Counted from the first letter of the stretch, positions 11,624 to 51,306 are shown. The stretch: DNA of 64,000 nt from Deltaproteobacteria bacterium (GCA_019310425.1 JAFDEI010000006.1:1034-65033), one strand, 5' to 3'. Translations and numbers: made by a program. The notes: generated by a model from the letters alone, not told the origin.

Positions 11624-11656
11624 TCGCCTCGCTTCTAGTCAGTGCCCCAGAATGCG

Positions 11657-12557: not shown

Positions 12558-12566
12558 GTCGGGCTT

Positions 12567-13299: not shown

Positions 13300-13462
13300 G
13301 GTCGCTCGCAACGGAAAATCATGGTTCCTCTCGCTCGTCGGGAGGCGCCGCAGGATACCAAAAGGGCGATCCGACGTTGCTGCCTGACGGAATTGCGCTT
13401 GACAGTCGCAGGTGGAGGACCGATTCAATGGTGTGTCCCGCGATCCTTCGGAAGCTCCGGCG

Positions 13463-14080: not shown

Positions 14081-14223
14081 CTGGACGAATATCGCGACGG
14101 TCGGCGACTACTTCTGTTTCGAATGGTGGTAGTAGGCGGGTTGCAAGATGGGTCAGGCCGGGTCTGTGTGGGGGGGGGATCTCCGCGCGAGGTGTCGCCA
14201 CTCGATGGGGCGCAAGGCGTGTG

Positions 14224-14562: not shown

Positions 14563-14595
14563 ATCATTCCTCTCGATGTCGCCCAGGCAGCGGGA

Positions 14596-15399: not shown

Positions 15400-15452
15400 C
15401 CTGATTCTCCCACGCGGACTTCCCCTCCGCGAGCTTGCGTGGCATCCGGCCA

Positions 15453-15947: not shown

Positions 15948-15955
15948 GTCCAACC

Positions 15956-18140: not shown

Positions 18141-18508
18141 CCTCCAGCACCGGGGGACCCCTCGGCCGAACGCGGCCGGTCAAGGACTCCACGCAGCTAG
18201 TTTCGGCCGGACGGCCGAGATTCTTGATGTTTCGAGCGACTCGCAGCGAGCGGCGCCCGACGGACCGCGAGCGTCTCTCATTGACGCGATTCGCCCCTAG
18301 TTGCACATGCGCGACGCTGTAGCGCTGCGAACTGCGGGTCAGGCGGGTTTCGTCGCTCACGCACACGCAACTGTTGTGCGGAATCCCGGAGGGCCGAGCG
18401 GAGAAGGCGTTTCAGTGATTGAGGCGTTCGCCCCTCACTTCGGGCTCTAGTTGCCCGAAAGGACGGCCGATATGAGAGGAGCCCTCAACGCACCTCGAGG
18501 AAGAAATC

Positions 18509-25732: not shown

Positions 25733-27550
25733 ATGGCACGAACGAAGGTCGCGTACGACGAGAAGGCGATCCAGACCCTGGACGCGCTCGAGCACATCCG
25801 TCTGCGCAGCGGGATGTACATCGGCCGTCTGGGCGACGGCAGCCATCCGCTCGACGGCATCTACGTGATGCTGAAGGAGGTGATCGACAATGCAGTCGAC
25901 GAATTCATCATGGGCTGCGGCAGGCGCGTCGAAGTCGAGCGCGACGGCGATTCGATCACTGTGCGTGATTTCGGCCGGGGCATCCCGCTCGGGAAGCTCG
26001 TCGATTGCGTCAGCCAGATCAACACGGGTGGCAAGTACAACGACGACGTATTCCAGTTCTCCGTCGGCCTGAACGGTGTCGGTAGCAAGGCCGTGAACGC
26101 GCTCTCGGCCGACTTCGAGGTGACGAGTTGGCGGGACGGGAAGAGCCGAAAGGCGACTTTCGAGCGTGGGCGTCTGAAGACCAACAAGCCGGGTCGGGAC
26201 GCGGATGCAACGCCCGGCACCCGGGTGCGCTTCACCCCGGACCGCGAGATATTCTCCGATTTTGCTTGGAACGAGGAGTTCATCGCGCACCGTCTGAACT
26301 ACTACGCGTTCCTGAACGCGGGTCTCACGCTTCATTACAACGGCACGCGTTTCCACAGCAAGGGTGGGCTGGCCGACCTGCTCGCCCAGGAAATCGGCGA
26401 TGACCCGCCGCTCTACGATCCGATCCACTGTCGCCTCGAACGGATCGAATTCGCGATCACCCACGCCAATAGCTATGGCGAGACCTACTACAGCTTCGTG
26501 AATGGCCAGTACACGAACGACGGTGGCACGCACCAGAGCGCGTTTCGCGAGGGCTTTCTCAAGGGAGTGAACGAATTCGCGAAGCAGAACTTTGCGGGCG
26601 AGGACGTGCGGGACGGCATCATCGGGGCGATCGCGCTGAAGCTGCAGGATCCAGTCTTCGATAGCCAGACCAAGAACAAATTGGGTTCGACCGAGGTCCG
26701 AGCGTGGGTCGTGCCGCTCGTCAAGGACGAGATCGTGCTGTGGTTGCACAAGAACCCCGAGGCTGCCGAGCGGCTGGTCGGCAAGATCAAGACGAACGAG
26801 CGCATCCGGAAGGAGTTGGCTTCGATCAAGAAGGAGGCGCGAGAGCGGGCCAGGAAGGTCGCGATCCGAATCCCGAAGCTGACCGACTGCAAGTTCCACT
26901 TCGACGATGCCAAGGCGAAGCGGCGTTCCGAGACGTCGCTCTTCATCACCGAGGGCGATTCGGCCGGTGGTGTGATGGTCCAGTGTCGCGACGTCTACAC
27001 TCAGGCGATCTTCGCGCTCAAGGGGAAGCCGCTCAATTGCCACGGGCTCAAGCGCGACGCGATCTACAAGAATGAAGAACTCTACAATCTGATGCGCGCG
27101 CTCGGCATCGAGGAAGGTGTCGAGGGCTTGCGATACAACAAGATCGTGATCGCGACCGACGCCGATGTCGACGGCATGCACATCCGCAATCTGCTGCTCA
27201 CCTACTTTCTTCGCTACTTCGAGGACCTCGTGATCAAGGGCCACGTCTATATCCTCGAAACGCCATTGTTTCGGGTGAGGAACAAGCAGGTGACCCGCTA
27301 CTGCTATTCGGATGTCGAAAAAGAATCGGCGGAGGCTGAGATTCGGGGCGCCGAGGTCACGCGTTTCAAAGGGCTCGGAGAGATCAGTCCGAACGAATTC
27401 GGTCAGTTCATCGGCGACGAGGGGCGGCTCTCGCCCGTGAGTGTCCAGAACATCAGCGAAGTGAGCCACTGCCTCGATTTCTTCATGGGCAAGAATACGC
27501 CCGAGCGCAAGGCGTTCATCATCGACAACCTCGTGACGAGCGTCGTCTAG
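25733..27550 (+). CDS. parE: type IIA DNA topoisomerase subunit B (ParE/GyrB-like, 605 aa)
   Basis: GHKL ATPase motifs (EVIDNAVDE, DFGRGIP, GLNGVGSKAVNALS). Toprim motifs EGDSAGG and IATDADVDGMHI. Confidence 0.85.
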   Translation: MARTKVAYDEKAIQTLDALEHIRLRSGMYIGRLGDGSHPLDGIYVMLKEVIDNAVDEFIMGCGRRVEVERDGDSITVRDFGRGIPLGKLVDCVSQINTGGKYNDDVFQFSVGLNGVGSKAVNALSADFEVTSWRDGKSRKATFERGRLKTNKPGRDADATPGTRVRFTPDREIFSDFAWNEEFIAHRLNYYAFLNAGLTLHYNGTRFHSKGGLADLLAQEIGDDPPLYDPIHCRLERIEFAITHANSYGETYYSFVNGQYTNDGGTHQSAFREGFLKGVNEFAKQNFAGEDVRDGIIGAIALKLQDPVFDSQTKNKLGSTEVRAWVVPLVKDEIVLWLHKNPEAAERLVGKIKTNERIRKELASIKKEARERARKVAIRIPKLTDCKFHFDDAKAKRRSETSLFITEGDSAGGVMVQCRDVYTQAIFALKGKPLNCHGLKRDAIYKNEELYNLMRALGIEEGVEGLRYNKIVIATDADVDGMHIRNLLLTYFLRYFEDLVIKGHVYILETPLFRVRNKQVTRYCYSDVEKESAEAEIRGAEVTRFKGLGEISPNEFGQFIGDEGRLSPVSVQNISEVSHCLDFFMGKNTPERKAFIIDNLVTSVV

Positions 27551-27560
27551 GAGAGGCGGG

Positions 27561-29567
27561 ATGGCACAGCTCGACTCCCTGATGCGCCAGAATTTCATCG
27601 ATTACGCCAGCTATTCGATCCTCGATCGTGCGATTCCGGATGTGCGCGACGGGCTCAAGCCCGTCCAGCGGCGCATTCTCCACACGCTGTTCGAGATGCA
27701 CGACGGTCGTTATCACAAGGTCGCGAATACGATCGGCGAGACGATGAAGTTGCACCCGCACGGCGATGCCTCGATCGGCAGCGCGTTGGTGGTGCTCGCC
27801 AACAAGGACTACTTCATCGACAAGCAGGGAAACTACGGCAGCGTTCTGACCGGGCACCCCGCCGCAGCGGCTCGCTACATCGAGTGCCGGCTCACGCCAC
27901 TCGCGCTCGCGACGATCTTCAACACCGACCTCACGGATTTCGTCGACAGTTACGATGGGCGCAGCCGTGAGCCGGTCTTCCTGCCCGCGAAGCTGCCGGT
28001 GGCGCTGATGCTCGGCACCGAGGGAATCGCGGTCGGAATGGCGACCCGAATCCTGCCGCATAATCTCGTCGAACTCTGGCAGGCGCAGATTGCCTGCTTG
28101 CGCGAAGAGCCGTTCGCCCTGTTCCCGGACTTCCCGCAGGGCGGGCAGATGGATGCGTCGGAGTATGCAGACGGTTTTGGAAAGGTCGAGATTCGGGCGA
28201 AGATCGAAGCGGCCGGCGATAAATGCATCGTGATTCGCGAAGTTCCATATGGAACGACGAGCGAGAGTCTGATTGCCTCGATCGAGGCGGCCGTGCAGAA
28301 GGGCCGTGTGAAGGTCGCATCCATCGACGATTTCACCACCGACACGATCGAGATCGAGCTGAAGCTGCCGCGGGGCGTGACTTCCGACGAGGTGATTCCC
28401 CAGCTCTACGCCTACACCGATTGTGGCCTGTCGGTGTCTTCGAACATGGTGCTCATCCGCGGCGACCGGCCGGTGCAGACGACGGTCAGTGAAGTGCTCG
28501 TGGGCCACACCGCGCAGCTGCGCGAGCAGATTCGTGCTGAGTTCGAGCTGGAGCAGCGTCGGATCACGGATCGCAAACACTGGCTCACGCTCGAACAGCT
28601 CTTCGTCGAAAAGCGTGTCTACAAGAAGATCGAGAAGGCCAAGACCGAGAAGGCGGTGAAGAGCGCAGTCGCGAGTGGAATGAAGGAGCATGCGGCGCTC
28701 TTTATTCGGCAGATGGTCGACGCTGACATCAAGCGCCTGCTCGAGCTGCGGATTCGTCGGATCTCATTGTTCGACATCGAGCAGAACCGCGGTGAGATCG
28801 AGGAGTGCGATCATCGCCTTGCCGAGATCGACAAGCTGCTCTCCGATCTGACCGGCACGACGATCGATTACCTCGAGGGGCTGATCGAGCGCTTCGGCGG
28901 CGAGTATCCGCGTCGCACGCAGCATACGAGCTTCGAGGTGATCGAGAAGAAGGCCGTCGCGCAACAGACGATCAAGCTGATGTACGACCGTGAGTCGGGA
29001 TTCTTCGGAACGGCGGTGAAGAGCGGGAATCGAGAGATGAGAGTCAGCGAATTCGACCTGGTCCTCGCGATTACAGACGACGGCGTCTACCGGATCATGA
29101 CACCGCCCGAAAAGCTGCTGTTGTCGGGCAAGTTGCTCTACCTGGAGGTATTCGATCCAGAGGTCGGACTCGAATTCATCGTCATCTACCGCGACCTACA
29201 GAAGAACGCGTTCGGCAAGCGTGTGCACGTTCACAAGTTCATCCGAAATCGTGAGTATCGGCTGGTCAAGGAGAAGGCCGGCAAGGTCGATCTGCTGTTG
29301 ACGAAAGGTGAGGGCGGCACGTTGATGCTCGATTATGTCCGTGCACCGCGGCAGCGGATCCGCAGCGGGAAGTTCGACCTGGCGAAGCTGGTACCGATGG
29401 GCGTATCGGCCCGCGGTGTGCGGCTGGCACCGAAACCGGTCAGCAAGCTCAGATTGGTGCCCAAGAAGGCGCCGCGGTCGAAGCCGAAGCCGGGGAAGGG
29501 CTCCGGCGGCAAATCATCGGAGAGCTCGAGCGGGCAAGGCGTCGGGCGTCAGACTTCGCTCTTTTGA
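27561..29567 (+). CDS. parC: type IIA DNA topoisomerase subunit A (ParC/GyrA-like, 668 aa)
   Basis: DGLKPVQRRIL, HPHGDASI and the active-site region AAARYIECRL. No GyrA-box seen. Short C-terminal region ends in a K/S/G-rich tail. Confidence 0.85.
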   Translation: MAQLDSLMRQNFIDYASYSILDRAIPDVRDGLKPVQRRILHTLFEMHDGRYHKVANTIGETMKLHPHGDASIGSALVVLANKDYFIDKQGNYGSVLTGHPAAAARYIECRLTPLALATIFNTDLTDFVDSYDGRSREPVFLPAKLPVALMLGTEGIAVGMATRILPHNLVELWQAQIACLREEPFALFPDFPQGGQMDASEYADGFGKVEIRAKIEAAGDKCIVIREVPYGTTSESLIASIEAAVQKGRVKVASIDDFTTDTIEIELKLPRGVTSDEVIPQLYAYTDCGLSVSSNMVLIRGDRPVQTTVSEVLVGHTAQLREQIRAEFELEQRRITDRKHWLTLEQLFVEKRVYKKIEKAKTEKAVKSAVASGMKEHAALFIRQMVDADIKRLLELRIRRISLFDIEQNRGEIEECDHRLAEIDKLLSDLTGTTIDYLEGLIERFGGEYPRRTQHTSFEVIEKKAVAQQTIKLMYDRESGFFGTAVKSGNREMRVSEFDLVLAITDDGVYRIMTPPEKLLLSGKLLYLEVFDPEVGLEFIVIYRDLQKNAFGKRVHVHKFIRNREYRLVKEKAGKVDLLLTKGEGGTLMLDYVRAPRQRIRSGKFDLAKLVPMGVSARGVRLAPKPVSKLRLVPKKAPRSKPKPGKGSGGKSSESSSGQGVGRQTSLF

Positions 29568-30266: not shown

Positions 30267-31241
30267 ATGAAGGTGGACAGCTCGATCCTGGTTTCGAATC
30301 CGCACGACGCAGGGGCGGTTGCGCGGGGTCTCGAGGAACTCGGTTACGACGGGGGATTCACGTTCGAGGGTCGGCACGACCCGTTCCTGCCGCTCTCCAT
30401 CGCGGCGGAACACACCGAGTCGCTCACGCTTGCGACCGCGGTCGCGATCGCGTTCGCGCGCAATCCGATGCTGCTCGCGAACCTCGGTTACGACCTGCAG
30501 CTGCAATCCGGCGGTCGTTTCATTCTCGGCCTCGGATCGCAGATCCGGCCCCATATCGAGCGCCGCTTCAGCGCCGTGTGGTCGCGCCCGGCCGATCGAA
30601 TGCGCGAGATGGTGCTCGCGATTCGGGCGATCTGGCGTAGCTGGCACGACGACGCCAAGCTGGATTTTCGCGGTGATTTCTACACCCACACGCTGATGAC
30701 GCCGGTCTTCAACCCAGGGCCGAACCCCCATGGGCTGCCGCCGATCTTCGTGGCGGGAATCGGGCCGAAGATGACGGCGGCCGTGGGAGAGGTGGCGGAC
30801 GGATTCTTCGTGCATCCGTTCCACACGCCGAAATTCATCGAAGAGGTGACCTTGCCCGCACTCGAGCGGGGCTTTGCGGCGTCGGGACGGACGCGTGATG
30901 AGGAGTTCGAGAACGCGAAGAACGTGGCTCGTGCCCAGTTGTCCTTCTATGGCTCGACGCCCGCCTACAGGGGTGTGCTCGATTGTCACGGTTGGGGGGA
31001 TCTGCATCTCGAGCTGAATCGGTTGTCGAAGACCGGGGGCTGGCTCCAGATGGCCGCCTTGATCGACGACGAGGTACTCGAGACGATCGCTGTCGTCGGT
31101 GAACCCCACGAGATTGCGGGGAAACTGCTCGATCGTTGCGGCTCGTTCGCCGATCGACTGAGTCTGGTCGCGGTTTACGCTCCCGACGCGGGGCGCTGGC
31201 TGGATGTAGTTCGTGCGATCCAGGGGGCGGAGCGGACGTGA
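30267..31241 (+). CDS. luciferase-like monooxygenase (LLM) class F420-dependent oxidoreductase
   Basis: 324 aa from ATG 30267. LLM blocks (LATAVAIAFARNP, RFILGLGSQ) and the typical C-terminal AVVGEPHEIAGKL. Confidence 0.75.
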   Translation: MKVDSSILVSNPHDAGAVARGLEELGYDGGFTFEGRHDPFLPLSIAAEHTESLTLATAVAIAFARNPMLLANLGYDLQLQSGGRFILGLGSQIRPHIERRFSAVWSRPADRMREMVLAIRAIWRSWHDDAKLDFRGDFYTHTLMTPVFNPGPNPHGLPPIFVAGIGPKMTAAVGEVADGFFVHPFHTPKFIEEVTLPALERGFAASGRTRDEEFENAKNVARAQLSFYGSTPAYRGVLDCHGWGDLHLELNRLSKTGGWLQMAALIDDEVLETIAVVGEPHEIAGKLLDRCGSFADRLSLVAVYAPDAGRWLDVVRAIQGAERT

Positions 31242-31278
31242 AGGGCGACGACGTTGTCGTAACGATGCGGGGGGGGCG

Positions 31279-32295
31279 ATGCGAATCCTGGTGACCGGGG
31301 GGACCGGGATGGTGGGCTGCCACACCGTGGCGGCGCTCTCGGCGGCGGGGCACGACGTGCGCTTGCTGGTTCGGAACCCCGATCGTGTCGGGCGGGCGCT
31401 GGATCCGCTCGGAGTCCGGGGTCTCGATCAGGTCGTCGGTGATGTCACGGACCCGGAGGCGGTGGAACGGGCCGTGTCGGGCTGTGACGCGGTCGTCCAC
31501 GCGGCTGCGGTTTTTACACTCGATCGGCGACGCGACGACGAGATGATGCACGTGAACGTGCGTGGTGCCGAGATCGTGTTCGACGCGGCTCTGCGTGCGA
31601 AGCTCGATCCGATCGTCCATGTCTCGAGCGTTTCGGCGCTGTTCCCGCCGGCGGGCGACCGCTTCGACCCGGACGAAGCAGTGAAGTGCCCCAAGGACGC
31701 CTACGCGCGGTCGAAGGCCGAGGCCGAGCGAATCGCCCGCCATCACCAGGATGCCGGTGCCCCGATCGTCTGCGTCTATCCGGGAAGCGTCTGGGGGCCT
31801 TGCGACCCGACCCTGGCTGACGGGATCGAAGTCCTGATGGGATTCGTGAAACTGGGCATCATCCCGATCGTCCCGGGTGGAATTCCGATCGTCGACGTCC
31901 GCGACCTCGCGGCCTTGCACCTCGCGGCGATGGAGCCGGGCCGTGGGCCGCGGCGCTACATGGCAGGTGGCAGCTTCCTCAATACTGCGGAACTGACCGA
32001 CACGCTGAACGAACTGACCGGTCGCAGGCTGCGCAAGTTTCACCTCTCGGGCGCCTTGTTTCGCGGCATCGGGCGTGTCGGGGATGCCGTCCGGCGCAGC
32101 ATCGGCTTCGACATCGGGCTCACCTACGAAGCAACGGTCACGTTGACGCGCGGAGTGCCCTGCGACGACTCGCGGGTCTTCGAGGATTTCGGCATCCGCT
32201 TTCGGCCCGTGGCGGAGACGTTTCGCGACTCGCTGCGATGGATGTACGCCGAGGGGATACTGAGCCGGCGACAGGCGGGCGACCTGGCGGGGTGA
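31279..32295 (+). CDS. NAD-dependent epimerase/dehydratase family SDR
   Basis: MRILVTGGTGMVGCH Rossmann motif and YARSK catalytic motif. Confidence 0.8.
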   Translation: MRILVTGGTGMVGCHTVAALSAAGHDVRLLVRNPDRVGRALDPLGVRGLDQVVGDVTDPEAVERAVSGCDAVVHAAAVFTLDRRRDDEMMHVNVRGAEIVFDAALRAKLDPIVHVSSVSALFPPAGDRFDPDEAVKCPKDAYARSKAEAERIARHHQDAGAPIVCVYPGSVWGPCDPTLADGIEVLMGFVKLGIIPIVPGGIPIVDVRDLAALHLAAMEPGRGPRRYMAGGSFLNTAELTDTLNELTGRRLRKFHLSGALFRGIGRVGDAVRRSIGFDIGLTYEATVTLTRGVPCDDSRVFEDFGIRFRPVAETFRDSLRWMYAEGILSRRQAGDLAG

Positions 32296-37648: not shown

Positions 37649-37780
37649 TCAGTCCAGCGTGATCACTCGAATGGTGTCGGTGCTGCCCGTAGTCCGATCG
37701 ATCCCGGTCGTGACGACGACCACGTCGCCGCCTTGCAGGCAGCCGAGTTCGCGGCCGCGCTGAACCGCGAATTCGATCAT
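37649..37780 (-). CDS. detached pyruvate kinase C-terminal fragment (43 codons) in the +1-shifted frame
   Basis: My translation gives MIEFAVQRGRELGCLQGGDVVVVTTGIDRTTGSTDTIRVITLD. This matches the conserved PK C-terminal GD.VV.T.G....G.TN..RV motif. Its ATG overlaps the pyk TGA (ATGA at 37777-37780). Confidence 0.6.
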   Translation of the reverse strand: MIEFAVQRGRELGCLQGGDVVVVTTGIDRTTGSTDTIRVITLD

Positions 37781-39042
37781 GGCACGCCCCAATTCAGCGA
37801 CAGCTGGCTCACGACTTCCGGCCAGTTGGTGACTGCGAGAATCGGGCAGGGTGGTCGGTATTTCGAGATCGACCGGGTGGTGAATCCGCTCTCGGTCAGA
37901 GTGATCATTGCCGCAGCTTCGAGGTGGGTTGCCATCGTCATGGCGGCCTGGCTGATCGCTTCCGTCATCAGATTCGACGGTTCTGGCAGGATGTGTTGCA
38001 GAACTCCGTATTCCGGTAGCGACGACTCCGCCTCGAGTGCGAGCATCGCCATCGTCCGGACCGCCTCCACCGGGTAGGCACCGCCCGCCGTTTCTCCGGA
38101 GAGCATTACTGCCGAGGTTCCGTCGAGAATCGCGTTCGCGACGTCACTGACTTCGGCGCGTGTCGGTGTCGGATTCCGTTGCATCGAGTCGAGCATCTGC
38201 GTGGCTGTGATCACCGGCTTGCCGTTCATTACGGTCGCCAGGATGATCTTCTTCTGAGCCATGGGAACCTGCTGGAGCGGGATCTCTACGCCGAGATCGC
38301 CGCGTGCGACCATCGTCCCGTCGGCGACCGTGATGATCTCATCCAGGTTCTCGACCCCTTCCTTGTTCTCGATCTTCGCGATGATTGGAATCCGCGCATC
38401 GCGATCCTGCAGGAAGTGCCGGATGTCGAGGACGTCGGCAGCATTGCGGACGAACGAGGCGGCGATGTAGGTCACGTCGTGCTCGATCGCGAAGAGCAGG
38501 TCATCGCGGTTTTCGGGGGTCAGGGACTGGAGACTCAGGGATGTGCCCGGGACGTTCACCCCCTTTCGATCGCCGAGGCGCCCGCCGCGTGCAACCCGGC
38601 AGCGGATCACGTCGCCCGCGATTTCTCGCACCCGCAGCTCGATGACGCCGTCGTCGAGAAGAATGGCCACGCCTTCGGAAACTTCCTCGAATAATTCGCG
38701 GTGGGAGACCGACACGCCGGAGGCGTCGCCGAAACGGTCGTCGCTGAACAGGTTGAACGGCTCGCCGGTGATGAGGTCCGCGATGCCCCCAGTGAGTCGC
38801 CCTGTGCGAACCTCGACGCCCCGGGTGTCGAGCATGATGCCGATATTCGCGGAAGATTCGTCGGCGGCCTGCCGGATCATCTCGAGGCGCTTATGGTGTT
38901 CGGCGTGGGTGCCGTGTGAGAAATTCAAGCGGGCGACGTTCATCCCCGCCCGGATCATCGCCTTCAGTGTGTCGAGCGAATCGCATGCGGGCCCGATCGT
39001 TGCAACTACTTTGGTCTTTCTGAGGATTCGTCTGCCCGTCAT
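37777..39042 (-). CDS. pyk: pyruvate kinase, ends prematurely (lacks the last ~45 residues in frame)
   Basis: TKVVATIGPA, MNVARLNFSHG, MVARGDLGVEIP and the C-terminal-domain region up to LSLNWGVP, then a TGA. ATG 39042 overlaps the stop of the CDF gene (ATGA). Confidence 0.8.
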   Translation of the reverse strand: MTGRRILRKTKVVATIGPACDSLDTLKAMIRAGMNVARLNFSHGTHAEHHKRLEMIRQAADESSANIGIMLDTRGVEVRTGRLTGGIADLITGEPFNLFSDDRFGDASGVSVSHRELFEEVSEGVAILLDDGVIELRVREIAGDVIRCRVARGGRLGDRKGVNVPGTSLSLQSLTPENRDDLLFAIEHDVTYIAASFVRNAADVLDIRHFLQDRDARIPIIAKIENKEGVENLDEIITVADGTMVARGDLGVEIPLQQVPMAQKKIILATVMNGKPVITATQMLDSMQRNPTPTRAEVSDVANAILDGTSAVMLSGETAGGAYPVEAVRTMAMLALEAESSLPEYGVLQHILPEPSNLMTEAISQAAMTMATHLEAAAMITLTESGFTTRSISKYRPPCPILAVTNWPEVVSQLSLNWGVP

Positions 39043-39950
39043 CGAGTGGCCAGTGCGGAAGCATCCGCGCACACCGAGCCAGGCTCTTCGAAATCACTCG
39101 CCTCGACCTGGATGGTGGTGTGGTCGATGCCCAGATGGTCGTGCAAGTGATCGCAGATCAGCTGGAGCAACGGGCCGTGCGCCTGATCATCGGCCGCGAC
39201 CACGTGACCCGATAGTGCGACGAGTCCGCTCGTGATGGTCCAGATGTGGAGGTCGTGTACCGCTTCGACGCCTGGCAGACTCGCAATCTCGCGGTGGATC
39301 GCGGGCACGTCGATGTGGGCGGGCGCAGCTTCCATGAGAATGTCGAGAGCCTCGCGCAGAAGTGCCCACGAAGAGTGGATCACGAGCAGGCCGATCGTGA
39401 TCGATGCTGCGGTGTCGGCCCAACTCCAGCCCCAGGCCCAGATCGCGAATCCGGCAGCCATCGCGCCGAGGCTGCCGAGCGCATCGCTCAACACGTGCAA
39501 CCAGGCACCGCGCACGTTCAGGTTCTCGTGCTTGCCGTGGCTCAGGATCGCCAGCCCAATCAGATTGACGACCAGGCCGCCAGTGGCCACCACCAGCATC
39601 GGGCCGGCCATGATTTCGCGTACCTGGCCGATCCGCTCCCAGGCCTCCCAGAAGATCGCCAATGAAACACAGACCAGCAGTATGCCGTGGCCGAGCGCAG
39701 CGAGGATCTCGCTGCGGTAGTAGCCGTAGGTCCGGCTCGCGGTGGGTGGGCGCTGCGCGATACGAATTGCGACCGCGCTCATCGCCAGCGCAAAGACGTC
39801 GGAGAGCATGTGGCCGGCGTCGGCGAGAAGCGCGAGCGAACCCGTCCACAAGCCGCCGATGACTTCGGCAACCATGTAGCTCGCGGCCAGTGCGAGCGCG
39901 AGCATCAGCCGGCGTTGATTGGCTGCTCCGTCTCCGCGGTGGTCGTGCAT
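39039..39950 (-). CDS. cation diffusion facilitator family metal exporter (CzcD/ZitB-like)
   Basis: Six TM helices with SLALLADAGHMLSD and AWLHVLSDALGS metal-site motifs, plus a C-terminal cytoplasmic domain. Confidence 0.85.
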   Translation of the reverse strand: MHDHRGDGAANQRRLMLALALAASYMVAEVIGGLWTGSLALLADAGHMLSDVFALAMSAVAIRIAQRPPTASRTYGYYRSEILAALGHGILLVCVSLAIFWEAWERIGQVREIMAGPMLVVATGGLVVNLIGLAILSHGKHENLNVRGAWLHVLSDALGSLGAMAAGFAIWAWGWSWADTAASITIGLLVIHSSWALLREALDILMEAAPAHIDVPAIHREIASLPGVEAVHDLHIWTITSGLVALSGHVVAADDQAHGPLLQLICDHLHDHLGIDHTTIQVEASDFEEPGSVCADASALATR

Positions 39951-40017: not shown

Positions 40018-40512
40018 TCAGGGAGCCTTCACGAGGAAGGTCAGGATCTTCTCGAATTCGAGCCCACGGCCCGAGAACGCGACCTCGTAGGCGTAGACAC
40101 CCGGCTCGGCAGCTTCCGGGATCTCGACGAACGCATCCACCACCCAACGCCCGGGCAGGATCTCATAGCCTTCTTCGGTCGAGTGGACGATGGGTGCGCC
40201 CTTGAATCGGATCCGAGTGGAGAGCAGGCCCGATACGACTTCGGTCGGTCCGGGAGGGCACATCACATAGACCATCCGGTGGTTGAATTCGCCGCCGGCT
40301 TTGATTCTCGGCGGCACGAGTTCGTTCTTCTCGACGATGAAGAAGGGGCGTTTCTGGGTCTCGCAGTCGTACTCTTCCCACACCAGGTCGGGCAGCGACC
40401 TGTTGACCGTTCCCTCTTTGCGAATTGCCTTCTGGAAGGTCCAGCGCACGCTGGCACAGCCGCTGAAGAGACCGGCGATCAGCAGTAACGCGACTATCTT
40501 CGAATGACCCAC
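40018..40512 (-). CDS. lipoprotein, unknown function
   Basis: Lipobox LFSGC. 164 aa. The start overlaps the end of the upstream kinase gene by 19 nt. Confidence 0.55.
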
Positions 40513-42017
40513 CCTTGCTCCTTCGGCGCCTCATCGGCTGGTTCTTGATGTGTCTTCCAGCCGCTGGACTGCGGCTTGCTCCGTGTCGACGCCTTCTTCG
40601 ATCTCGTCGTCGGTTTCGATTCGGTCTTCGCCGCCGCCTGCTTCGACGCAGGCGGATCGGAATTCGTCGCCGCTTTTGCTTCATCGTTGCCGATGGGCGG
40701 AGCGGCGGGTCGTTTCGCCTGCCGCTCCGCCTCGGAGACGACGATCTCGGCCAGAGCCGCGGCTGCGGTTGCGTTGCCGGATCGATCGCTGCCCTGGAGC
40801 GTGGCCGCCGGAGCCGGGAGCGGCGGATGCGGTTCGATCGGCGCCACCGCGGGGTGTTCGAAGTCCGCCCCGAGAATTGGATTCGTCGCGGTCTCGATCA
40901 CATCGCGGCGGTGAGCGAACAGCACATTTGCGGCGATGGCGAGCAGCAGGATTGCGGCAGCGATCGAGGTGGTTTGCCAGCTGAACCGGGGCGCGCCGCG
41001 GCCAGGCTCGGCAGGGCTGCGCTGAGTGTCGCCTACGCTCTTCGATGCCGATGTTCGCGCGGGGATGGGTCGGTCGGTCGTTCTGGCTTCCGATGCAGGG
41101 CCGGATCCGGTCATCACGTGCGTGGCTTCGACCATTGCCGCGGGAGTGTCGAGATCGAGTCGCGGCCGCTCGCCGGTGATCGACGTGGTTCGCTCGAGAG
41201 TGATTCCTTCGGCACCGGCTTCGAGTGCTGCGCGAAATTCGTCGGTCGAGGCGAAGCGTGCGGCTGGTGTTTTCTCCAGTGCGCGCAGCACGGCGTCGGA
41301 GATCGCCTCGGGAATGCTCGGTTCGAGTGTGCGCGGCGATGGCGGACACTTTGCGATCTGGTCCTGCATCAGCTCGAAATCGGTCTTGCGCTTGAACGGG
41401 ACACAGCCGGTGAGCATGTCGAACAGCAGAATGCCGAGTGAGTAGATGTCGGATCGTGCGTCGCTGTCCTTGCCGCGAACCTGTTCGGGCGACATGTACT
41501 GGAGGGTTCCGACCATGTGGCCATGCCGCGTGAGCCGGTCGGAACCGAGTGCGCGGGCGATGCCGAAGTCCATCACCTTCACGACTTCCTGCTGGTTCAG
41601 CATCATGTTCGAGCCCTTGATGTCGCGGTGGATGATCCCGCGTGCGTGGGCGTAGCCGATTCCTTCGAGGGCCTGGAAGAAGAGGGGCAGGGCACAGGCC
41701 ACGGGCAGACGACCCAGACGGCGGATCATCTCCGCGAAGGTTTCCCCCTCGACATACTCGAGCACCATCCAAAACGCGTCGTTCTCGTGGATCAGGGTGT
41801 AGAGGGTCGCGATGTTGGGGTGGTTCAGCTGCGCGAGGGTTTGCGCCTCGGTGCGAAAGCGCTCCAAGAGTTTTGGCTGGGAGGCGAGATCCGCCCGCAG
41901 GGCCTTCATTGCGACCGGACGATGCAGGAGCAGGTCGGTGGCCTTGTAGACCTCGCCGACGCCCCCCTCGCCAATCTTCTCTAGAAACAGATAGTTTCCG
42001 ACGCTCTTGCCGATCAT
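40494..42017 (-). CDS. serine/threonine protein kinase with C-terminal TM segment and Lys/Ala/Ser-rich tail
   Basis: From ATG 42017: [11 protein letters not shown] glycine loop, [14 protein letters not shown] catalytic loop, DFG, SPEQ. A TM segment ([20 protein letters not shown]) follows. Confidence 0.85.
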
Positions 42018-42148
42018 TCCGAGCCAGCCCCAGGCGATGCAAATCACACGTATGCGGCATGGATATCGGTCTGTCGCGACAGGGTCTTTACGCGGAGCTG
42101 TACGCTCAGCGCGGCGCGGGCGGTGCCTGGGTCTCCCCGTGGGGGGCG

Positions 42149-45100
42149 TCAGGCCATCAGGTCGCCCATTTTCGACAGGATTCGGACGGTTTCTTCGGGG
42201 AGCACCGGTGGTTCCCGACCGACCGCGTAGCAACCGAGGATGACCTCCGCGGTGCGCTCGATGATTTCAGCCATATCGGCCGCCCGGCGCAGACTCCGGC
42301 CGGCTACGAGCACACCGTGGTTCTGCATCAGCACCGCCCAGCCGTCCCCCATCGCCTCGACGACGGCAGTCGCGAGATCGGCGGTACCCGGCATCACGAA
42401 CGGGATCCGGCCGATGTTGACGAGGAAGGCAGCCTCGGTCGAAATCGGGAGAAAGGGCAAGCCCGTATTGGCGAGGATGGTCGCGTTCGGCGCGTGGCAG
42501 TGGATGATTGCCTGGGCTTCGGGCTTGGCCTCGAACACCGCGGTGTGCATCGGAGCCTCGCTCGAAGGCGAACGGGCGGCTGGATCGAGTGCGCGGCCGT
42601 CCATGCCGATTCGGACCAGGATCTCCGGAGCCAGGTCGCCCTTGAAGAGTTGGCTCGGCGTGATCCAGGCCTCCCCCGGCGTTCCCGTGCGCACGCTGAC
42701 ATTGCCGCCGGTCGCGGTGATGAGTTGGGTTGCGTAGAGCTCGTTCACGATTTCGACGAGCTGGTGTCGTGCGTCACTCGCCGGAATTCCGCTCACTGGC
42801 GTTCCCGTGCGCACGCTGACGGTGGCGGAATCCGCGGGCGTGGCCCCGGTCGCGGGGCCCGATTCGTCCGGCCGGGGAATCGACGACAGATCTCCGGGTT
42901 CGCCGACCTCGGCAATCGCGGCGCGATAGACCCGCTCCATGTCGGCCTGAATTTCGGTGAGGGTCATGGCTTTCGCGGTATCGCCGCTGAACGAGATATC
43001 CCCCTCCATGGCGGCCTGCATCGGGTTGGTGCGGCCCGTGAACATCCCGTCGAACATGTCGGCACGCATCTTCAGCTGCACGTCGGCAAGGTCGTCGGGT
43101 GCCCCGATTCCGCCGATCAACCCGCCAGGCGCGAAACCGAAATGGATCTCCAGGTCGAGGTCGATGATGATGAAATGGAGTACGACTTCGCGGCCGGAGC
43201 CGGCCTCGCGCAGCGCTTCGTCGTTTACGAGGCCGTGCGCGAAGGCGGTCAGAACGCGCTCCATCGAGCTGCGCAGTTCGACGAGGTTGCTGTCGGGTAT
43301 CGGGGACGAGGGGCCGATGGCGCTCGGCGCGGCTGCCGGAGCGGCACTCGTCCTCGTGCTCGCATGGCCCTTCTTCTCGAGGTCGGTAACGGCCGGTGGC
43401 GGCCGCTGCAGCAGCCGCCTCTTCTGCTCAGCGGTTGGTGGCGTTCGCGGCTGCGTCCAGTCGAAGTCGGCCAGCACGTCCGGGTTCAGCAGGCACAGCG
43501 CGGGAACCCCCGCGCGCATGCGTTCGAGGTCGGCCGCGATGATGCGACCCTGGTGTGATGCAACCTCGGCGGTGTTGCCGCCGATGTGCGGGGTCGCGAT
43601 CACGTTGTCGAGAGCGAGCAGCGGGTCGTCGGAAGCGGGTGGTTCGACGGAGAAGACGTCCATTGCCGCACCAGCGAGATGGCCCGCCTCGAGCGCGTCG
43701 ACGAGCGCGTCCTGGTCGATGAGGGCAGCGCGTGCCGTGTTGACGAGACAGCTCCCCGCGCGCATTCGCGCGATCTCGGCAGCGCCGATCATTCCGGTCG
43801 TCTCGTCGCTCACCGCCGCGTGCAGCGAGACGAAGTCGCTCCTTTCGAGGACTTCCGCGAGTGAAGCGGGCTCGGCGCCGGCGAGTCGGATTCGGTCCGC
43901 ATCGACGTACGGATCGTGTACCAGGCAGTGCACTCCGAACGGACGCAGCCTTTCGATCACTTTGCGCCCAACGGCCCCCATGCCGACGAGCCCAATCGTC
44001 TTGCGCCAGAGCTCGCGGCCCTGAAGCTGCTTGAATGCACGACCCATTCGGCCCATGTCGCCGGCTTCGCCACCGGGCTCGCGCAGGAATGCGGCGGCCT
44101 CCGGCATCCTGCGGGCGAGCATCAGCAGATAGGTGAGCGTCAGATCCGCGACTGCGTCGGCATTGCGGCCCGGCGCGTTCAGCACCGGAATCCCGAGGTC
44201 GCTACAAGCCGCGATATCGACATTCACCGCATCGCCACGGCAAGTGGCGACGATGCGCAGATCGTCTGCTTCGGAAAGTGCGACGGCGTCGACGACGTCG
44301 ATCTCGGTTACGAAGACCTCGACCCCGGCGAGTGCCTCTGCGAGTGTGCGACCGGTGAGCAGGCGCATCGCCTTTTTGAAAGGAACATGCTCGACATCGC
44401 CGATTCGCTGCAATCCCGCGAGTCCAGCTTCGTCCATCTCCGCGGTGACGAGGATTCTGGGTCTGGCGTCATTCGAGGTTTCGGCCTGTCTGACAGGTTG
44501 GGGCTGGGACAGCAGCCCCTTGATCGCGAGCGCCGAAGCCGCGGCATCCGATTCGGCCCGTGCGAGGCGAAGTCCGTTCCAGTCGCCGTAGAGCTCGGAG
44601 TAGATCGTGGCAGCGGCGGTCGGTTCGCAGCTGCGGTCGCTGGTGGCGAGTGCGGCGGCCCCCGCGGCGAGGTCGGGGTAGACCCCGGCCGCGACACCGG
44701 CGCAGATCGCCGCGCCCAACGCGGTGGCTTCGGGAGTACCGCCGACGTCGACCGGGCGGTCGAGCACATCGCTGAGCGTCTGAGTGAAGAAGGCACTGCG
44801 TGCGAGGCCGCCGGCGACATGGATACGCGTCGCTGCGCAACCCGCCACGGCCTCGGCCTGTTCGATGTTTGCGCGCAGGCCGAACGCGATGCCCTCGACG
44901 ATCGAACGCGCGAGGTGCTGTCGGCGCTCGCGTGAATCGCCGGGGCCCATGGGGCTGAGTGTCAGGTTGCCGATCGGCAGGCCGAGCTTTCGCGCGTCCA
45001 TGACGTCTGCGCCGAGAGTCGACACCATTCCGGCTGCTCCGGGAAGCGAGCACTCGGCTTCCGCGAACAGGTGCCCGAGGGGCCAGGGCGTGTCGGGGAA

Positions 45101-46048
45101 CAGCAGCCCCGCCACCCATTCGGCTGCGGTTCCGACCCCGCCGGCGTTGCTCTCGATGACCCACTGCCCGGGTATCATGTGATGTGCCGACCACAGCCGT
45201 GCGGAGTCGTCGAGCAAGGGGCGGTCGACGACGAGCTGGACGGGCGCGGTGGTTCCGAGAATCACCCCCATCTCGCCGGGCCGTGTGACCCCAGCGCCAA
45301 GCAGGCCGCATTGTGTGTCGCCGCCGCCGACCCCGACCGGAATACCCGCTGGCAGGCCGAGATCGGCCGCTGCGCGTTCAGCGAGTTCGCCGAGTCGGCT
45401 GCCCGGAGTACATACCTCTGGGAACAGGCTGCGCGGAAGCTCGAGACGATCGATCAGATCCCAGGCCCAATCGCCTTCGGCGAGGTCGAGGAGCAGGGTT
45501 TCGCTCGCCTGCGAGGGATCGGTCGCGAGTTCGCCACAGAGGCGGAAGCCAAGCCAGTCGCCGAGGCTCAGGTGCGTCGCCGCGCGGTCCCAGCCGGCGT
45601 TCGCCTGTTGTTTGAGCCAGAGCAGTCGACCTGCGGCCTGGACGGGATTCGGCCAGTGGCCGGTGCGACGGTGCAGTTCCTCGCCGGATTCGGCGCCCAG
45701 GCGGAGTGCCTCGGCGAGTCCGCGTGCGTCACGGTTCGAGGTCGCGAGCAGTAGGTTGCCGTCTGAGTCCAGCACCGCGCTGGCATGACGCATGCTCGTC
45801 GCGGCGATTCCCACGACTTGCTCGGGCTTGGCGCCCGACCGCTCCAGGACCTCGCGTACGCACTCGCAGAGCAGTTCCCAGCATCGTTCGGCGTCGACAT
45901 CCGACGCGGTCGGCAGATCGGAGGGGCTCTCGAAGGTCCAGGTCCGAAACGCGACCGTCATTGCTCGGCTCTCGACATCGATGACGAGGCAACGGCCGCC
46001 ACCACCCCCGAAATCGAGTCCGATCAAGAATCTGGAGTCCATCGTCAC
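42149..46048 (-). CDS. four-domain fusion protein: FGGY (LsrK-like) carbohydrate kinase / D-isomer 2-hydroxyacid dehydrogenase / SCP2 / class II aldolase-adducin
   Basis: One uninterrupted 1299-codon ORF (GTG 46048 or ATG 46042). Motifs: LDFGGGGGR and [13 protein letters not shown] (FGGY); [36 protein letters not shown] (2-HADH); [26 protein letters not shown] (SCP2); PSSE, HCHAP, MQNHG (class II aldolase). Confidence 0.8.
42678..42820. repeat. 23-bp perfect direct repeat, copies exactly 120 bp apart, inside the fusion gene
   Basis: ggcgttcccgtgcgcacgctgac occurs at 42678-42700 and 42798-42820. Both copies encode VSVRTGTP in frame. Confidence 0.9.
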
Positions 46049-46247: not shown

Positions 46248-47201
46248 ATGCTGCTGCGAATTGTCGGGCTCTTGCTTTCGGTCGTCACCTGGCTCGTGCC
46301 GGTCGGCGCGTCGGCCGAAGACGCCGTTCCGGGTCTGGCGCTGCGCTGGCTCGGGGTCGCGGGTTTCAGTGTTTCCGATGGCGAAACGGTACTGCTGCAC
46401 GATCCGTATCTGAGCCGGCCGGGTTTGCTGGCGACACTCTTCACGCGTTTCCGGCCGGACGAGGGGCTATTGGAGCGCTGGCTCGACCCGGGCGGGCCAG
46501 CGCCGGAGGCTGTGTCCGCGCGGACCATCCTGATCGGTCACAGTCACTTCGATCACCTCGGCGACAGCCCCTGGATCGCCGATCGAATCGGTGCCACGAT
46601 CGTGGGTTCAGGCACCACGGTTGCCATCGCGCAGGCTTACGGGCTGCCTGGGGAACGGACCCGCCTGTTGGACCCGGGCGATGAAATCGATGTCGGGCCA
46701 TTCGAGATCCGCGTCGTTGCGAGCCGCCATGCTGCCGTCATGTTCGGCCGCGTGCCGCTCACTGGCCATGTGCTCGAGCCGCCCGTCGGGCCGATTCACG
46801 CGCTGTCATTCAAGCTCGGCGATGCGCGGGGCTACCTGATCAGGCACCTGCCGAGTGGGGTGCGGGTGTACGTGACCAGCAGCGCGGCCGTCGATCGCCC
46901 CGCGCTCGAGGCACTACGCGATGCCGGCATCGAGGTCGACGTACTGCTGGCTGCGATCCCGGGGCGTGCTCCGGACTACGTTCCGAGCCTGATCGAGCTG
47001 TTGCGGCCGCGAATCGTCGTGCCCCATCATTTCGACGACTTCTTCGTCCCGATCTCGGAGCCGGCGGCGGGAACGGCGACTTCACCCGAGGATCTCGAGC
47101 TGTTCGAGGAGGAGGTTCGCGCCGCCTCGGAGCGTTTCGGGACCGACACGGAAGTGCGCCGCGTCGCCTTGTTCGAGCGCTTCGAGCTCGTTTCCGACTG
47201 A
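46248..47201 (+). CDS. MBL-fold metallo-hydrolase with signal peptide
   Basis: ATG 46248 and signal LLLSVVTWLVPVGASA. HSHFDH metal motif and a later VPHHFDDF. Confidence 0.7.
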   Translation: MLLRIVGLLLSVVTWLVPVGASAEDAVPGLALRWLGVAGFSVSDGETVLLHDPYLSRPGLLATLFTRFRPDEGLLERWLDPGGPAPEAVSARTILIGHSHFDHLGDSPWIADRIGATIVGSGTTVAIAQAYGLPGERTRLLDPGDEIDVGPFEIRVVASRHAAVMFGRVPLTGHVLEPPVGPIHALSFKLGDARGYLIRHLPSGVRVYVTSSAAVDRPALEALRDAGIEVDVLLAAIPGRAPDYVPSLIELLRPRIVVPHHFDDFFVPISEPAAGTATSPEDLELFEEEVRAASERFGTDTEVRRVALFERFELVSD

Positions 47202-49993: not shown

Positions 49994-51306
49994 TCAGCTT
50001 TCGAAGCCGTTGTCGGCCGCGACCTGGCCGTACCAGTGGCCCGATGCCTTCAAAGTCCGGTCGGCGCTCGGGAAATCGACGTAGGTCAGGCCGAAGCGCT
50101 GGCGGTACCCCTCGGACCACTCGAAGTTGTCGAGTAGGGTCCAGGCGTGGTACCCGCGCACGTCGGCGTTGCCTTCGATCGCCCGAGCGACGGCGGCCAG
50201 GTAACCGCGGAAGAATTCGATCCGGCGTTGGTCGTTGATGACACCGTTCGAGTCGGGGCCATCCGAGTAGGAGCAGCCGTTCTCGGTGACTTCGAGTACG
50301 GGGCGGTCGTAGTCCGCGGTGACGCGCATCAACATGTCGTAGAGAGCGTCGGGCCAGACCTCCCAGCCGAAGTCCGTCCTCGGCCCCTGCTCGCCGCCCT
50401 GTGCCATCACGTGTTGGGCATCGAGACCGAGCGGCCCGCCCTCGCAGGCGGCTACGTGCGAGCGCGAGTGAGGTCGTCGTCCCGCACGCCCATGAGTTCT
50501 ACGGGTAGGCCGCCCGGAAACGCGTCGGGGTAATGGCCGAGCAGCGCGGGCTCGAGGAACCAGCAGTTGGTGTAGCGGTGCCAGCGCTCGGCAGCCTCCG
50601 AATCGGCTTCGGTGTCGCCCGCGGGCTCGCACGGGGCCATGCTGAACGCGGTCCCGACCCGGCTCTCGGGGTACTCGGACTTGATCGCGCGGAAGCCCTC
50701 GCCTTGGGCGAGGTTCACGGTGTGGCTGGCCCGCAGGAGTGCGTCGCGGTCGCGGCGACCGGGGGCGTGCATCCCAAAGCCGTAACCGAGCGAGGTGAAG
50801 ACCTGGGGCTCGTTGAAGAGGATCCAGTCGTGGACGCGGTCACCGATCGCGCGCGCGACGATATGGGCGTAGTCGGCGAAGCGCCCAGCGGTGTCGCGAT
50901 TCGGCCAGCCCCCGCGATCCTCGAGTGCCTGTGGCAGATCCCAGTGATACAGCGTGGGGAAGGGCCGGATCCCGGCCGCGAGCAGGTCGTCGACCAGGCG
51001 GCGGTAGTAGTCGACTCCCTTCGCATTCACGCTGCCGTCGCCCTCCGGCAGGATGCGGGGCCAGGCGATCGAGAAGCGGTAGCTGTTGAGGTTCATCTCG
51101 CGCATCAGCGCGATGTCTTCAGCATGGCGGTGGTAGGAATCGCACGCGACATCGCCGGTGTCGCCACTCGAGATATTCCCCTCGGTATGGGCGAATCGAT
51201 CCCATATCGATTCACCCTTGCCGTCCTCGCGCGCGGCTCCCTCGATTTGATACGAAGCGGTCGCGGTGCCCCAGTGGAAACCATCGGGGAAGTGAATGCG
51301 CGCCAT
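49994..51306 (-). pseudogene. GH1 beta-glucosidase interrupted by a frameshift near 50450-50480
   Basis: The N-terminal ORF (50452..51306) has FHWGTATASYQIEG, YRFSIAWPRI and LFNEP (acid/base Glu). The C-terminal part (frame of ORF 49994..50632) has VTENG (nucleophile Glu), HAWTLLDNFEW and YRQRFGLTYVD. The two parts are in different frames. Confidence 0.75.

Follow-up and report, generated by a model that had tools for sequence, protein, structure and literature searches.

A single open reading frame (ORF) in the 64,000 nucleotide stretch JAFDEI010000006.1:1034-65033 (GCA_019310425.1, Deltaproteobacteria bacterium; the whole stretch is here called the window) seems to encode a kinase, a dehydrogenase, a sterol-carrier-like domain and an aldolase in succession, and raises the question of whether these four parts really make up one protein, and of what such a protein may do. 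A sequence-only reading of the window had proposed a single polypeptide, in which all three enzymes keep intact catalytic signatures. Both statements hold: Pfam detects FGGY, 2-Hacid_dh, SCP2 and Aldolase_II domains above their cut-offs, and the signatures are in place in the translation and in an alignment of 57 full-length homologues, on which residue conservation is judged throughout. The four domains themselves are familiar; their combination is conserved and widely distributed, and no description of it was found. The protein appears to be a genuine single-chain, three-enzyme machine, whose role is presumably catabolic. The ORF and its domains are located as follows.

42149..46048, (-) strand: four-domain fusion ORF, 1299 codons from a GTG at 46048, no internal stop; stop codon at 42149-42151
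44576..46036, (-) strand: FGGY kinase domain, LsrK-like, residues ~5-491
43472..44464, (-) strand: D-isomer 2-hydroxyacid dehydrogenase domain, residues ~529-859
42905..43294, (-) strand: SCP2 (sterol-carrier-protein-2 fold) domain, residues ~919-1048
42173..42775, (-) strand: class II (metal-dependent) aldolase/adducin-fold domain, residues ~1092-1292

Six Pfam models match the protein, every one above its gathering score, and low-complexity linkers are present on either side of SCP2 (residues ~860-918 and ~1049-1091). The motif strings quoted in the sequence-only reading are all found in the translation, and its domain boundaries are correct to within about 30 residues. Codon-position G+C of the ORF (72/51/79%, in a window of 64.5% G+C) is typical of a coding frame. 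The true start is probably the ATG at 46042, two codons inside the GTG, which gives a protein of 1297 amino acids: it is the start both in a 100% identical database copy (P0001) and in the gene call of a second contig (L091; labels of this kind denote individual loci).

This second contig, from another JGI sample record, is 99.97% identical in DNA to the window over 11 kb, and carries an identical protein with the same neighbours. The genome bin L004, 89.6% identical in nucleotides over this region, also has an intact ORF, with a product 91% identical in amino acids. Ratios of non-synonymous to synonymous substitution rates (dN/dS) between the window and this bin are 0.125 for the kinase, 0.064 for the dehydrogenase, 0.136 for SCP2 and 0.074 for the aldolase, while the three linkers give 0.83, 0.36 and 0.45: every domain, SCP2 included, is under selection, and the linkers alone drift.

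A search of 5.8 billion proteins with the window protein gave 423 matches; the best 120 of the 423 are full or near-full length and, a few truncated entries excepted, contain the same six Pfam domains. When a Clostridia member, 36% identical, was used as the query of a second search, 46 further matches were obtained, most with six domains and many about 1480-1530 amino acids long. Altogether, the architecture is present in more than 160 protein clusters and, in a scan of one genome per species, in 78 genome loci, from at least seven phyla. By their labels, the carriers are Myxococcota/'Deltaproteobacteria', Thermodesulfobacteriota, Desulfomonilia, Bacteriovoracaceae, Chloroflexota, Thermoleophilia and other Actinomycetota, Christensenellales/Clostridiales and some further groups. 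The Mycobacterium kansasii complex is represented by four species; cultured carriers include Bellilinea caldifistulae GOMI-1 (Chloroflexota) and Mycobacterium persicum. Database names vary among 'autoinducer 2 kinase', 'NAD(P)-dependent oxidoreductase' and 'class II aldolase/adducin family protein'. The sequence-only reading had not recognised the domain order as that of a described enzyme, and no description of the four-domain fusion was found in the literature.

Two variants occur. A Clostridia/Chloroflexi-type form of about 1480-1530 amino acids features two tandem SCP2 domains (L067 4103-8545; L082, L088, L089, L086, L090). In one locus (L058 8621-12262) a dehydrogenase-SCP2-aldolase protein is found without the FGGY kinase, its N-terminal 460 residues having no Pfam match; no kinase gene was found within 10 kb of it. 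The product of another locus (L073), considered as a variant lacking a domain, is full length and was rejected as such. Reading-frame changes in four long-read bins (L053, L055, L068, L080) may be long-read errors.

The kinase is a member of the FGGY carbohydrate kinase family: FGGY_N covers residues 8-251 (130.7 bits, cut-off 28.8) and FGGY_C residues 365-454 (74.8 bits, cut-off 27), both above gathering, and the catalytic Asp and phosphate-loop glycines are present. Conserved residues are D12, G14, D244-T-Q, G265-T-T, E299-S-N and G413-G414; among them D12, D244, G265-T-T and G413-G414 are kept in 54-57 of the 57 homologues. As had been judged by eye, the closest characterised relative is the autoinducer-2 (AI-2) kinase LsrK. 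The LsrK model NF008187 is the best NCBIfam match (262 bits over residues 5-491), with XylB next (194 bits), and LsrK 5ya0 is the nearest structure by sequence in the Protein Data Bank (PDB), at 207 bits, the runner-up scoring 129. The LsrK cut-off is 528 bits, and no LsrF, LsrG or LsrACDB genes were found in the window neighbourhood or in 11 other Pfam-annotated loci. Because the score is half the cut-off, further domains are attached and lsr partners are not found, the substrate of the fusion kinase very likely differs from that of LsrK.

In the dehydrogenase, Pfam 2-Hacid_dh (533-843, 46.3 bits) encloses 2-Hacid_dh_C (639-823, 177.9 bits). The Rossmann motif G686xxGxGxxG, D712, H743, the catalytic R773, E802 and H821 are near-invariant, with G686, G689, G691, R773, E802 and H821 found in 57 of 57 homologues, which places the domain in the D-isomer 2-hydroxyacid dehydrogenase family. 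Scores of hidden Markov models (HMMs) are 206-210 bits for PGDH (cut-off 454) and 200-205 bits for glyoxylate reductase (cut-off 455): the domain is about equally far from both, and belongs to neither equivalog. Its nearest PDB structure is M. tuberculosis PGDH (157 bits), relative to which a 10-residue insertion, E661-A-G-D-M-G-R-M-G, is almost invariant in the family. Invariant T-E and C-R-G (C603-R604) stand in place of the PGDH substrate loops 'VRS' and 'RAG', and P626-G-R-N-A is also invariant.

SCP2 is the weakest of the domain calls (Pfam 955-1033, 37.9 bits, cut-off 21.3), and a sequence search of the region against the PDB gave E = 0.085 at best. Residues 915-1050 were therefore modelled with AlphaFold2 on the basis of 32 homologues (mean pLDDT 94); when the model was compared with the PDB by Foldseek, the 46 best matches were all SCP2-fold lipid-binding modules, among them Thermus SCP2, alkylsulfatase C-terminal domains, UbiJ and the SCP-2L domain of MFE-2. 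The model confirms the SCP2 sterol-carrier fold, for which lipid binding is predicted.

The fourth domain, Aldolase_II (1096-1270, 149.9 bits), conserves G1114-G-N-x-S, S1162-S-E1164, which contains the catalytic Glu, and the metal ligands H1183, H1185 and H1244. E1164 is present in 55, H1183 in 56, H1185 in 54 and H1244 in 55 of the 57 homologues, as expected for the class II aldolase/adducin family; T1204-[E/D]1205 occupies the position of FucA Tyr113. HMM scores are 102 bits for FucA (cut-off 264), 96.4 for the epimerase subfamily, 95 for haloarchaeal ribulose-1-phosphate aldolase and 94.7 for OtnC (cut-off 250), where cut-offs of these models are in the 250-300 bit range; the domain falls outside the FucA, OtnC and AraD equivalogs. 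The nearest PDB structure is 6btd (94 bits), followed by structures of FucA. The former is DrdA, a 5-deoxy-D-ribulose-1-phosphate aldolase; FucA and DrdA cleave (3R,4R) ketose-1-phosphates, and tolerate many aldehydes (PMC6079011).

Since each of the domains scores under all curated equivalog cut-offs, the protein is assigned, as judged from its sequence, to the FGGY, 2-hydroxyacid dehydrogenase, SCP2 and class II aldolase superfamilies, and to none of their characterised equivalogs. Near-invariant catalytic residues, along with signatures of the family's own, indicate that all three active sites should be functional, with a specificity that is probably new.

Genes adjacent to the fusion in the window are the following.

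40494-42047, (-) strand: Ser/Thr protein kinase, 101 nucleotides downstream of the fusion
46248-47201, (+) strand: divergent MBL-fold hydrolase, 205 nucleotides upstream of the fusion; CvpA is also upstream

Downstream, on the same strand, the Ser/Thr kinase is followed by a 164-amino-acid ORF, a CDF transporter and a pyruvate kinase; L002 and L004 share the synteny of this neighbourhood. The position between a Ser/Thr kinase gene and a divergent MBL-fold gene is as the sequence-only reading had it. Its description of the gene as monocistronic-looking is left uncertain: the Ser/Thr kinase is close and on the same strand, a scan for promoters and terminators around the fusion gave nothing above chance, with no terminator-like site before the Ser/Thr kinase, and the two genes are paired in 13 related loci (including L002, L004, L007, L010, L020, L031, L046, L051 and L052). 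A regulatory link between the Ser/Thr kinase and the fusion enzyme is possible. Elsewhere in the window, a 1477-amino-acid ORF (18509-22942, + strand) has only a short PilY1-like match (E = 2e-10, about 55 residues), and an adjacent GyrB/ParE-like and GyrA/ParC-like pair (25733-29567, + strand), for type II topoisomerase subunits, lies beside a sulfatase and an ion-channel gene, in what looks like an ordinary chromosomal context.

Across the family, enzymes that handle aldehydes recur near the fusion. Aldehyde:ferredoxin oxidoreductase (AOR) is found in seven loci of Anaerolineae and delta-type lineages, directly upstream (L033, L086), in the same operon (L090, L026, L032) or in a same-strand cluster (L064, L069). 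Aldehyde dehydrogenase (ALDH) is encoded directly downstream in the four Mycobacterium species, and nearby in L071. An orthologous short-chain dehydrogenase/reductase (SDR) is directly downstream in four Clostridia loci, where a MarR regulator or a GPH symporter, the fusion and the SDR form a conserved unit. Regulators near the fusion are mostly of the MarR and TetR types. A module of class-III aminotransferase, M28 metallopeptidase and extended SDR of the HpnA family flanks the fusion in six loci, with two gene orders and in two phyla.

L090 2454-7952; L026 3608-9981; L032 970-6495: aminotransferase-M28-HpnA module upstream of the fusion, Anaerolineae, with AOR
L053, L055, L068 ~14000-17800: aminotransferase-M28-HpnA module downstream of the fusion, Thermoleophilia

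The SDR in L090, 48 nucleotides upstream of the fusion, is a member of the HpnA family (TIGR03466, 438.5 bits, cut-off 367.65), with orthologues in the other five loci (L026, L032, L053, L055, L068). Its second-best family is the sterol demethylase reductase SdmB, and its nearest structures are Gox2253 and cinnamoyl-CoA and dihydroflavonol reductases. The aminotransferase of the module is nearest to PigE, which acts (amination) on a lipid-like aldehyde. The window contains an extended SDR of its own (31213-32295, + strand), 30% identical to the L090 protein and with the same best PDB match, 3wj7, about 10 kb from the fusion and beside a luciferase-like monooxygenase.

Other neighbours are of lipid type. 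An acyl-CoA ligase follows the fusion by 13-49 nucleotides in four loci (L024, L017, L019, L048) and lies about 1 kb off in two more (L022, L027), the copies being 63-77% identical; the L024 ligase scores 684 bits on the CasG steroid-24-oyl-CoA synthetase model (cut-off 750), the next family reaching 360. Thiolase-like/DUF35 pairs, acyl-CoA dehydrogenases (ACADs), MaoC, a CoA-transferase and a KshA-like Rieske protein are also found, as are DegV and an ERG2/sigma-1-like protein encoded directly upstream. The Mycobacterium loci contain two WS/DGAT genes, a PlsC-type acyltransferase, an AMP-ligase and thioester-reductase-like extended SDRs. Finally, the fusion is placed within an AmeABCD-like DUF1329-[fusion]-BNR-RND-DUF1302 cluster in L021, L023, L064 and L069 (~8500-21000), with an AOR after it, and partially in L040 and L065. 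DUF1329/BNR/RND/DUF1302 clusters are needed for growth on Tween/fatty esters in Pseudomonas and on monoterpenes in Castellaniella (bioRxiv 10.1101/2020.07.04.188060; PMC6394551).

From the domains and these neighbours we infer an order of reactions, the nature of the substrate, a role for SCP2 and, further on, a link to hopanoids. In the scheme that we tentatively prefer, and to which we give somewhat less than an even chance, a hydrophobic compound with a polyol end would be worked on by kinase, dehydrogenase and aldolase in this order, and the products would be dihydroxyacetone phosphate (DHAP) and an aldehyde that is itself hydrophobic. It is the simplest scheme in which the three catalytic domains are all used from the N- to the C-terminus. 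FGGY kinases act on the terminal hydroxyls of polyols and ketoses; here the terminal primary hydroxyl of a chain R-CHOH-CHOH-CHOH-CH2OH would be phosphorylated. The PGDH-like dehydrogenase would oxidise the adjacent secondary alcohol with NAD(P)+, leaving a ketose-1-phosphate-type end, R-CHOH-CHOH-CO-CH2OP, and the FucA/DrdA-type aldolase would break the C3-C4 bond, to yield DHAP and R-CHO. SCP2, just ahead of the aldolase, may hold the hydrophobic part R, and the separately encoded neighbours would oxidise, reduce or CoA-activate R-CHO.

The sequence-only reading had placed the aldolase before the dehydrogenase. The order given here seems to fit better, because the domains run kinase-dehydrogenase-SCP2-aldolase, because the nearest PGDH oxidises a CHOH beside CH2-O-phosphate, and because aldehyde-oxidising enzymes are encoded separately next door. 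A true aldolase is favoured over a decarboxylase or an epimerase, since the recurrent AOR, ALDH, SDR and aminotransferase neighbours all use aldehydes; the neighbouring AOR, ALDH and SDR genes lend indirect support to the release of DHAP and an aldehyde. That this aldehyde, and hence the substrate, may be hydrophobic is suggested by SCP2, which is selected, duplicated in one clade and located just before the aldolase, and by neighbouring genes for CoA ligation, beta-oxidation and transport. That SCP2 hints at a hydrophobic ligand, as the sequence-only reading had it, gains from the domain's dN/dS of 0.136, from the Clostridia duplication and from the lipid- and aldehyde-related genes nearby.

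The leading candidate for such a substrate is bacteriohopanetetrol, in which case the fusion would be the missing enzyme that degrades the bacteriohopanepolyol side chain; this identification is doubtful, and is offered as a candidate. The C32-C35 tail of bacteriohopanetetrol is CHOH-CHOH-CHOH-CH2OH, exactly as the scheme requires. The C35 hydroxyl would be phosphorylated, C34 oxidised and the C32-C33 bond cleaved, releasing DHAP and a C32 hopanoid aldehyde, which AOR, ALDH or SDR neighbours would turn into C32 hopanoic acid or hopanol; the CasG-like ligase would start beta-oxidation in organisms able to go further. C32 hopanoic acid carries ring-CH(CH3)-CH2-CH2-COOH, a side chain identical in form to the cholanoate C24 (bile-acid) one that CasG activates. 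The aminotransferase-M28-HpnA module may convert amino- and N-acyl-aminotriols, via ribosylhopane, into the tetrol. The hopanoid side chain is a 5'-deoxyribose adduct, derived from the ribose of 5'-deoxyadenosine (PMC12583986); because of this origin, the 35-phosphate oxidised at C34 would be a 5-substituted D-ribulose-1-phosphate, of the DrdA/FucA substrate class. C32 hopanoic acid, hopanol and hopanone have been found together with bacteriohopanetetrol in natural biofilms.

A number of points weigh against the scheme or its hopanoid version. The dehydrogenase step is the weakest link: all characterised D-2-hydroxyacid dehydrogenases known to us act on carboxylates or other anions, and the carboxylate-binding Arg, R773, is invariant in the fusion family, so that oxidation of a non-acid polyol phosphate would be new for these enzymes. 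HMM scores, 95-102 bits throughout, cannot separate an aldolase from a decarboxylase or an epimerase. The window's own neighbours (Ser/Thr kinase, MBL hydrolase, CvpA) are uninformative on function, and there is no universal neighbour: in an all-against-all clustering of ORFs from about 80 loci no partner occurred in more than ten, and in a Pfam census of 120 co-directional neighbour ORFs the largest family had seven members. Function, for this reason, is not readable from one conserved operon. At least one redox or lipid partner is present in 46 of 86 unique loci, a count which, with no statistic or background control attached, is suggestive. As to hopanoids, HpnA has been proposed, without proof, for the step from ribosylhopane to the tetrol. 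No ORF was found when all loci and the window were scanned for squalene-hopene cyclase motifs (DxDDTA and QW repeats), and the RND protein of the delta-type cluster has no HpnN match, but only a weak one to generic efflux pumps. The Firmicutes and Bellilinea contexts look sugar-related.

The sugar-related contexts lead to an alternative of soluble sugar or sugar-acid catabolism, close to the order of the sequence-only reading: the kinase would phosphorylate a small ketose or keto-uronate, such as the fructuronate made by UxaC, the aldolase would release DHAP and a small aldehyde-acid (tartronate semialdehyde, hydroxypyruvate, glyoxylate), the dehydrogenase would reduce this product, and SCP2 would be a mere spacer. 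Its main context is a Christensenellales bin (L070 7568-23447), where the fusion lies in a uronate/unsaturated-glycuronide operon (AraC, UxaC, KduI, KduD, GH88, MFS_2) and overlaps the end of UxaC by 4 bp, a sign of translational coupling. Phosphosugar regulators of SorC/DeoR type are directly upstream in seven Chloroflexota loci, and GPH-family transporters (symporters) are beside the fusion in Clostridia. Further, the glyoxylate reductase and PGDH models fit the dehydrogenase equally well, its carboxylate-binding Arg is retained, and FucK/FucA and RhaB/RhaD are precedents from general knowledge. The uronate context, however, is limited to one locus; sugar isomerases, glycosidases and sugar ABC transporters are not among the top families of the neighbour census; and SCP2, selected as strongly as the kinase and duplicated in one clade, is hard to see as a spacer. 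Products of two or three carbons, moreover, would need no adjacent CasG-like ligases, AOR, ALDH or thiolase/ACAD genes. We regard this alternative as unlikely, though far from negligible. The same L070 locus holds two large ORFs, of 812 and 706 amino acids, with no family match.

A biosynthetic direction would turn the preferred scheme around: the aldolase would join DHAP to a fatty or isoprenoid aldehyde brought in by SCP2, and the dehydrogenase would then reduce the resulting long-chain polyhydroxy-ketone phosphate, or else kinase and dehydrogenase would supply DHAP from glycerol. The AMP-ligase, acyltransferase, thioester-reductase-like SDRs and WS/DGAT pair around the Mycobacterium fusion would suit such a role, HpnA is elsewhere a gene of biosynthesis clusters, and class II aldolase equilibria favour condensation (PMC6079011). 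Yet DHAP is already available in cells, which would leave a dedicated kinase with no obvious role; many carriers are anaerobic fermenters or degraders, and no lipid-biosynthetic genes were seen nearby in their annotated loci; neighbours such as AOR, ALDH and CoA-ligase are more in keeping with the removal of an aldehyde. We know of no natural product of the predicted type from the carrier taxa, and consider this direction improbable.

Still less probable is that the aldolase-like domain is a decarboxylase, isomerase or epimerase (OtnC-, LerI- or AraD-like), so that a sugar acid would be phosphorylated, oxidised in the manner of PdxB and decarboxylated to DHAP, in a tetronate- or tetrulose-type route. 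The score on 3-oxo-tetronate-4-phosphate decarboxylase (94.7 bits) and that on the epimerase subfamily are about as high as that on FucA, the Tyr113 position is changed to T-[E/D], and the dehydrogenase resembles PGDH and PdxB, which are enzymes for phospho-hydroxy-acids. None of the decarboxylase or epimerase models, however, comes near its cut-off, the catalytic Glu and three metal-binding His of true aldolases are all kept, and both SCP2 and the recurrent aldehyde-oxidising neighbours would be left unexplained.

Processing or quenching of AI-2 (4,5-dihydroxy-2,3-pentanedione, DPD), with the kinase making phospho-DPD and the fused domains degrading it, has very little to recommend it, and the AI-2-like substrate suggested by the sequence-only reading is not borne out. 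LsrK is indeed the best kinase model and the best PDB match, but the score of 262 bits against 528 and the lack of LsrF, LsrG and Lsr-transporter genes in the annotated neighbourhoods speak against it, and the chemistry of phospho-DPD calls for no SCP2 domain and no aldehyde oxidoreductases. The sole Lsr-related feature is the SorC-type (LsrR-type) regulator upstream in Chloroflexota, which scores higher on Bacillus DeoR than on LsrR.

Lastly, the fear that sequencing or assembly errors at the linkers had joined adjacent, separate genes is effectively refuted: frameshift-type defects do occur elsewhere in the window, in a pyruvate kinase (~37783) and in a GH1 gene (~50469), but the ORF recurs on the independent contig L091 and in the bin L004 (89.6% identity), and more than 160 clusters, drawn from many assemblies and from isolate genomes, contain it, while dN/dS shows selected domains and linkers that evolve in frame. 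Of these two genes, the pyruvate kinase (37655-39072, - strand) changes frame at about 37783, where the match to the L002 orthologue passes from frame -2 (orthologue residues 3-420) to frame -1 (433-475), and is either a frameshift pseudogene or the product of an assembly indel. The GH1 beta-glucosidase (49994-51306, - strand) is broken up into two ORFs that overlap. At about 50469 the L091 contig, elsewhere the same, has one extra base, which makes a single-base error of assembly or sequencing, or else a variant within the population, the probable cause.

Should the phosphorylate-oxidise-cleave mechanism prove true, it would represent a new way to take a glycolytic C3 unit from polyol-tailed lipids, and would add a reaction type to those of the D-2-hydroxyacid dehydrogenase family. 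Were the substrate a bacteriohopanepolyol, the conversion of C35 hopanoids to C32 acids and alcohols, a long-standing geochemical question, would become directly testable; the C32 hopanoic acids and hopanols that dominate sediments would have an enzymatic origin, and HpnA-type reductases would gain a substrate. The cultured Bellilinea caldifistulae GOMI-1 and Mycobacterium persicum make the hopanoid question accessible to test. In view of the inconsistent database names, the family is in any case a clear candidate for correction of automated annotation.

Each part of the protein may be compared with known systems. The kinase domain aligns end to end (residues 5-491) with LsrK (5ya0), and keeps the FGGY catalytic Asp and phosphate-binding Gly motifs; unlike LsrK, it stands at half the equivalog cut-off, is joined to three more domains, and is not accompanied by lsr operon partners. 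The dehydrogenase shares the Arg-Glu-His set and the Rossmann motif with SerA (PGDH) and PdxB, which give its best HMM and PDB matches and oxidise a CHOH adjoining CH2-O-phosphate; it differs from them in scoring below half their cut-offs, in its replaced loops and in the family-specific insertion EAGDMGRMG.

The overall logic recalls FucK/FucA, RhaB/RhaD and DrdK/DrdI/DrdA, where phosphorylation is followed by metal-dependent cleavage to DHAP and an aldehyde, to be oxidised or reduced by another enzyme (PMC6079011). In these pathways small individual proteins work on soluble deoxy-sugars, the ketose being made by an isomerase; in the fusion a dehydrogenase takes the isomerase's place, SCP2 is inserted, all domains are in a single chain, and Tyr113 is replaced. 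FucA and DrdA remain the nearest relatives of its aldolase, with which they share the catalytic Glu and three His. RhaEW, a rhamnulose-1-phosphate aldolase fused to lactaldehyde dehydrogenase, also combines a class II aldolase and a dehydrogenase in a catabolic protein, but its dehydrogenase part, an SDR, takes the aldehyde product as substrate, and kinase and SCP2 domains are not part of it. In the sphingosine pathway, as in the proposed mechanism, the polar end of a lipid is phosphorylated (sphingosine kinase) and a C-C bond is cut (sphingosine-1-phosphate lyase), to give a small phosphorylated unit and a fatty aldehyde; the enzymes, however, belong to unrelated families (DAGK-like kinase, pyridoxal phosphate-dependent lyase), and the small product is phosphoethanolamine instead of DHAP. 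SCP2, finally, is fused to catalytic domains for hydrophobic substrates also in MFE-2/HSD17B4, SCPx, UbiJ and the alkylsulfatases SdsA1 and Pisa1, which supply its best structural matches. There it is C-terminal and paired with beta-oxidation, sulfatase or quinone enzymes, while its position between a dehydrogenase and a sugar-type aldolase is, among these proteins, peculiar to the fusion.

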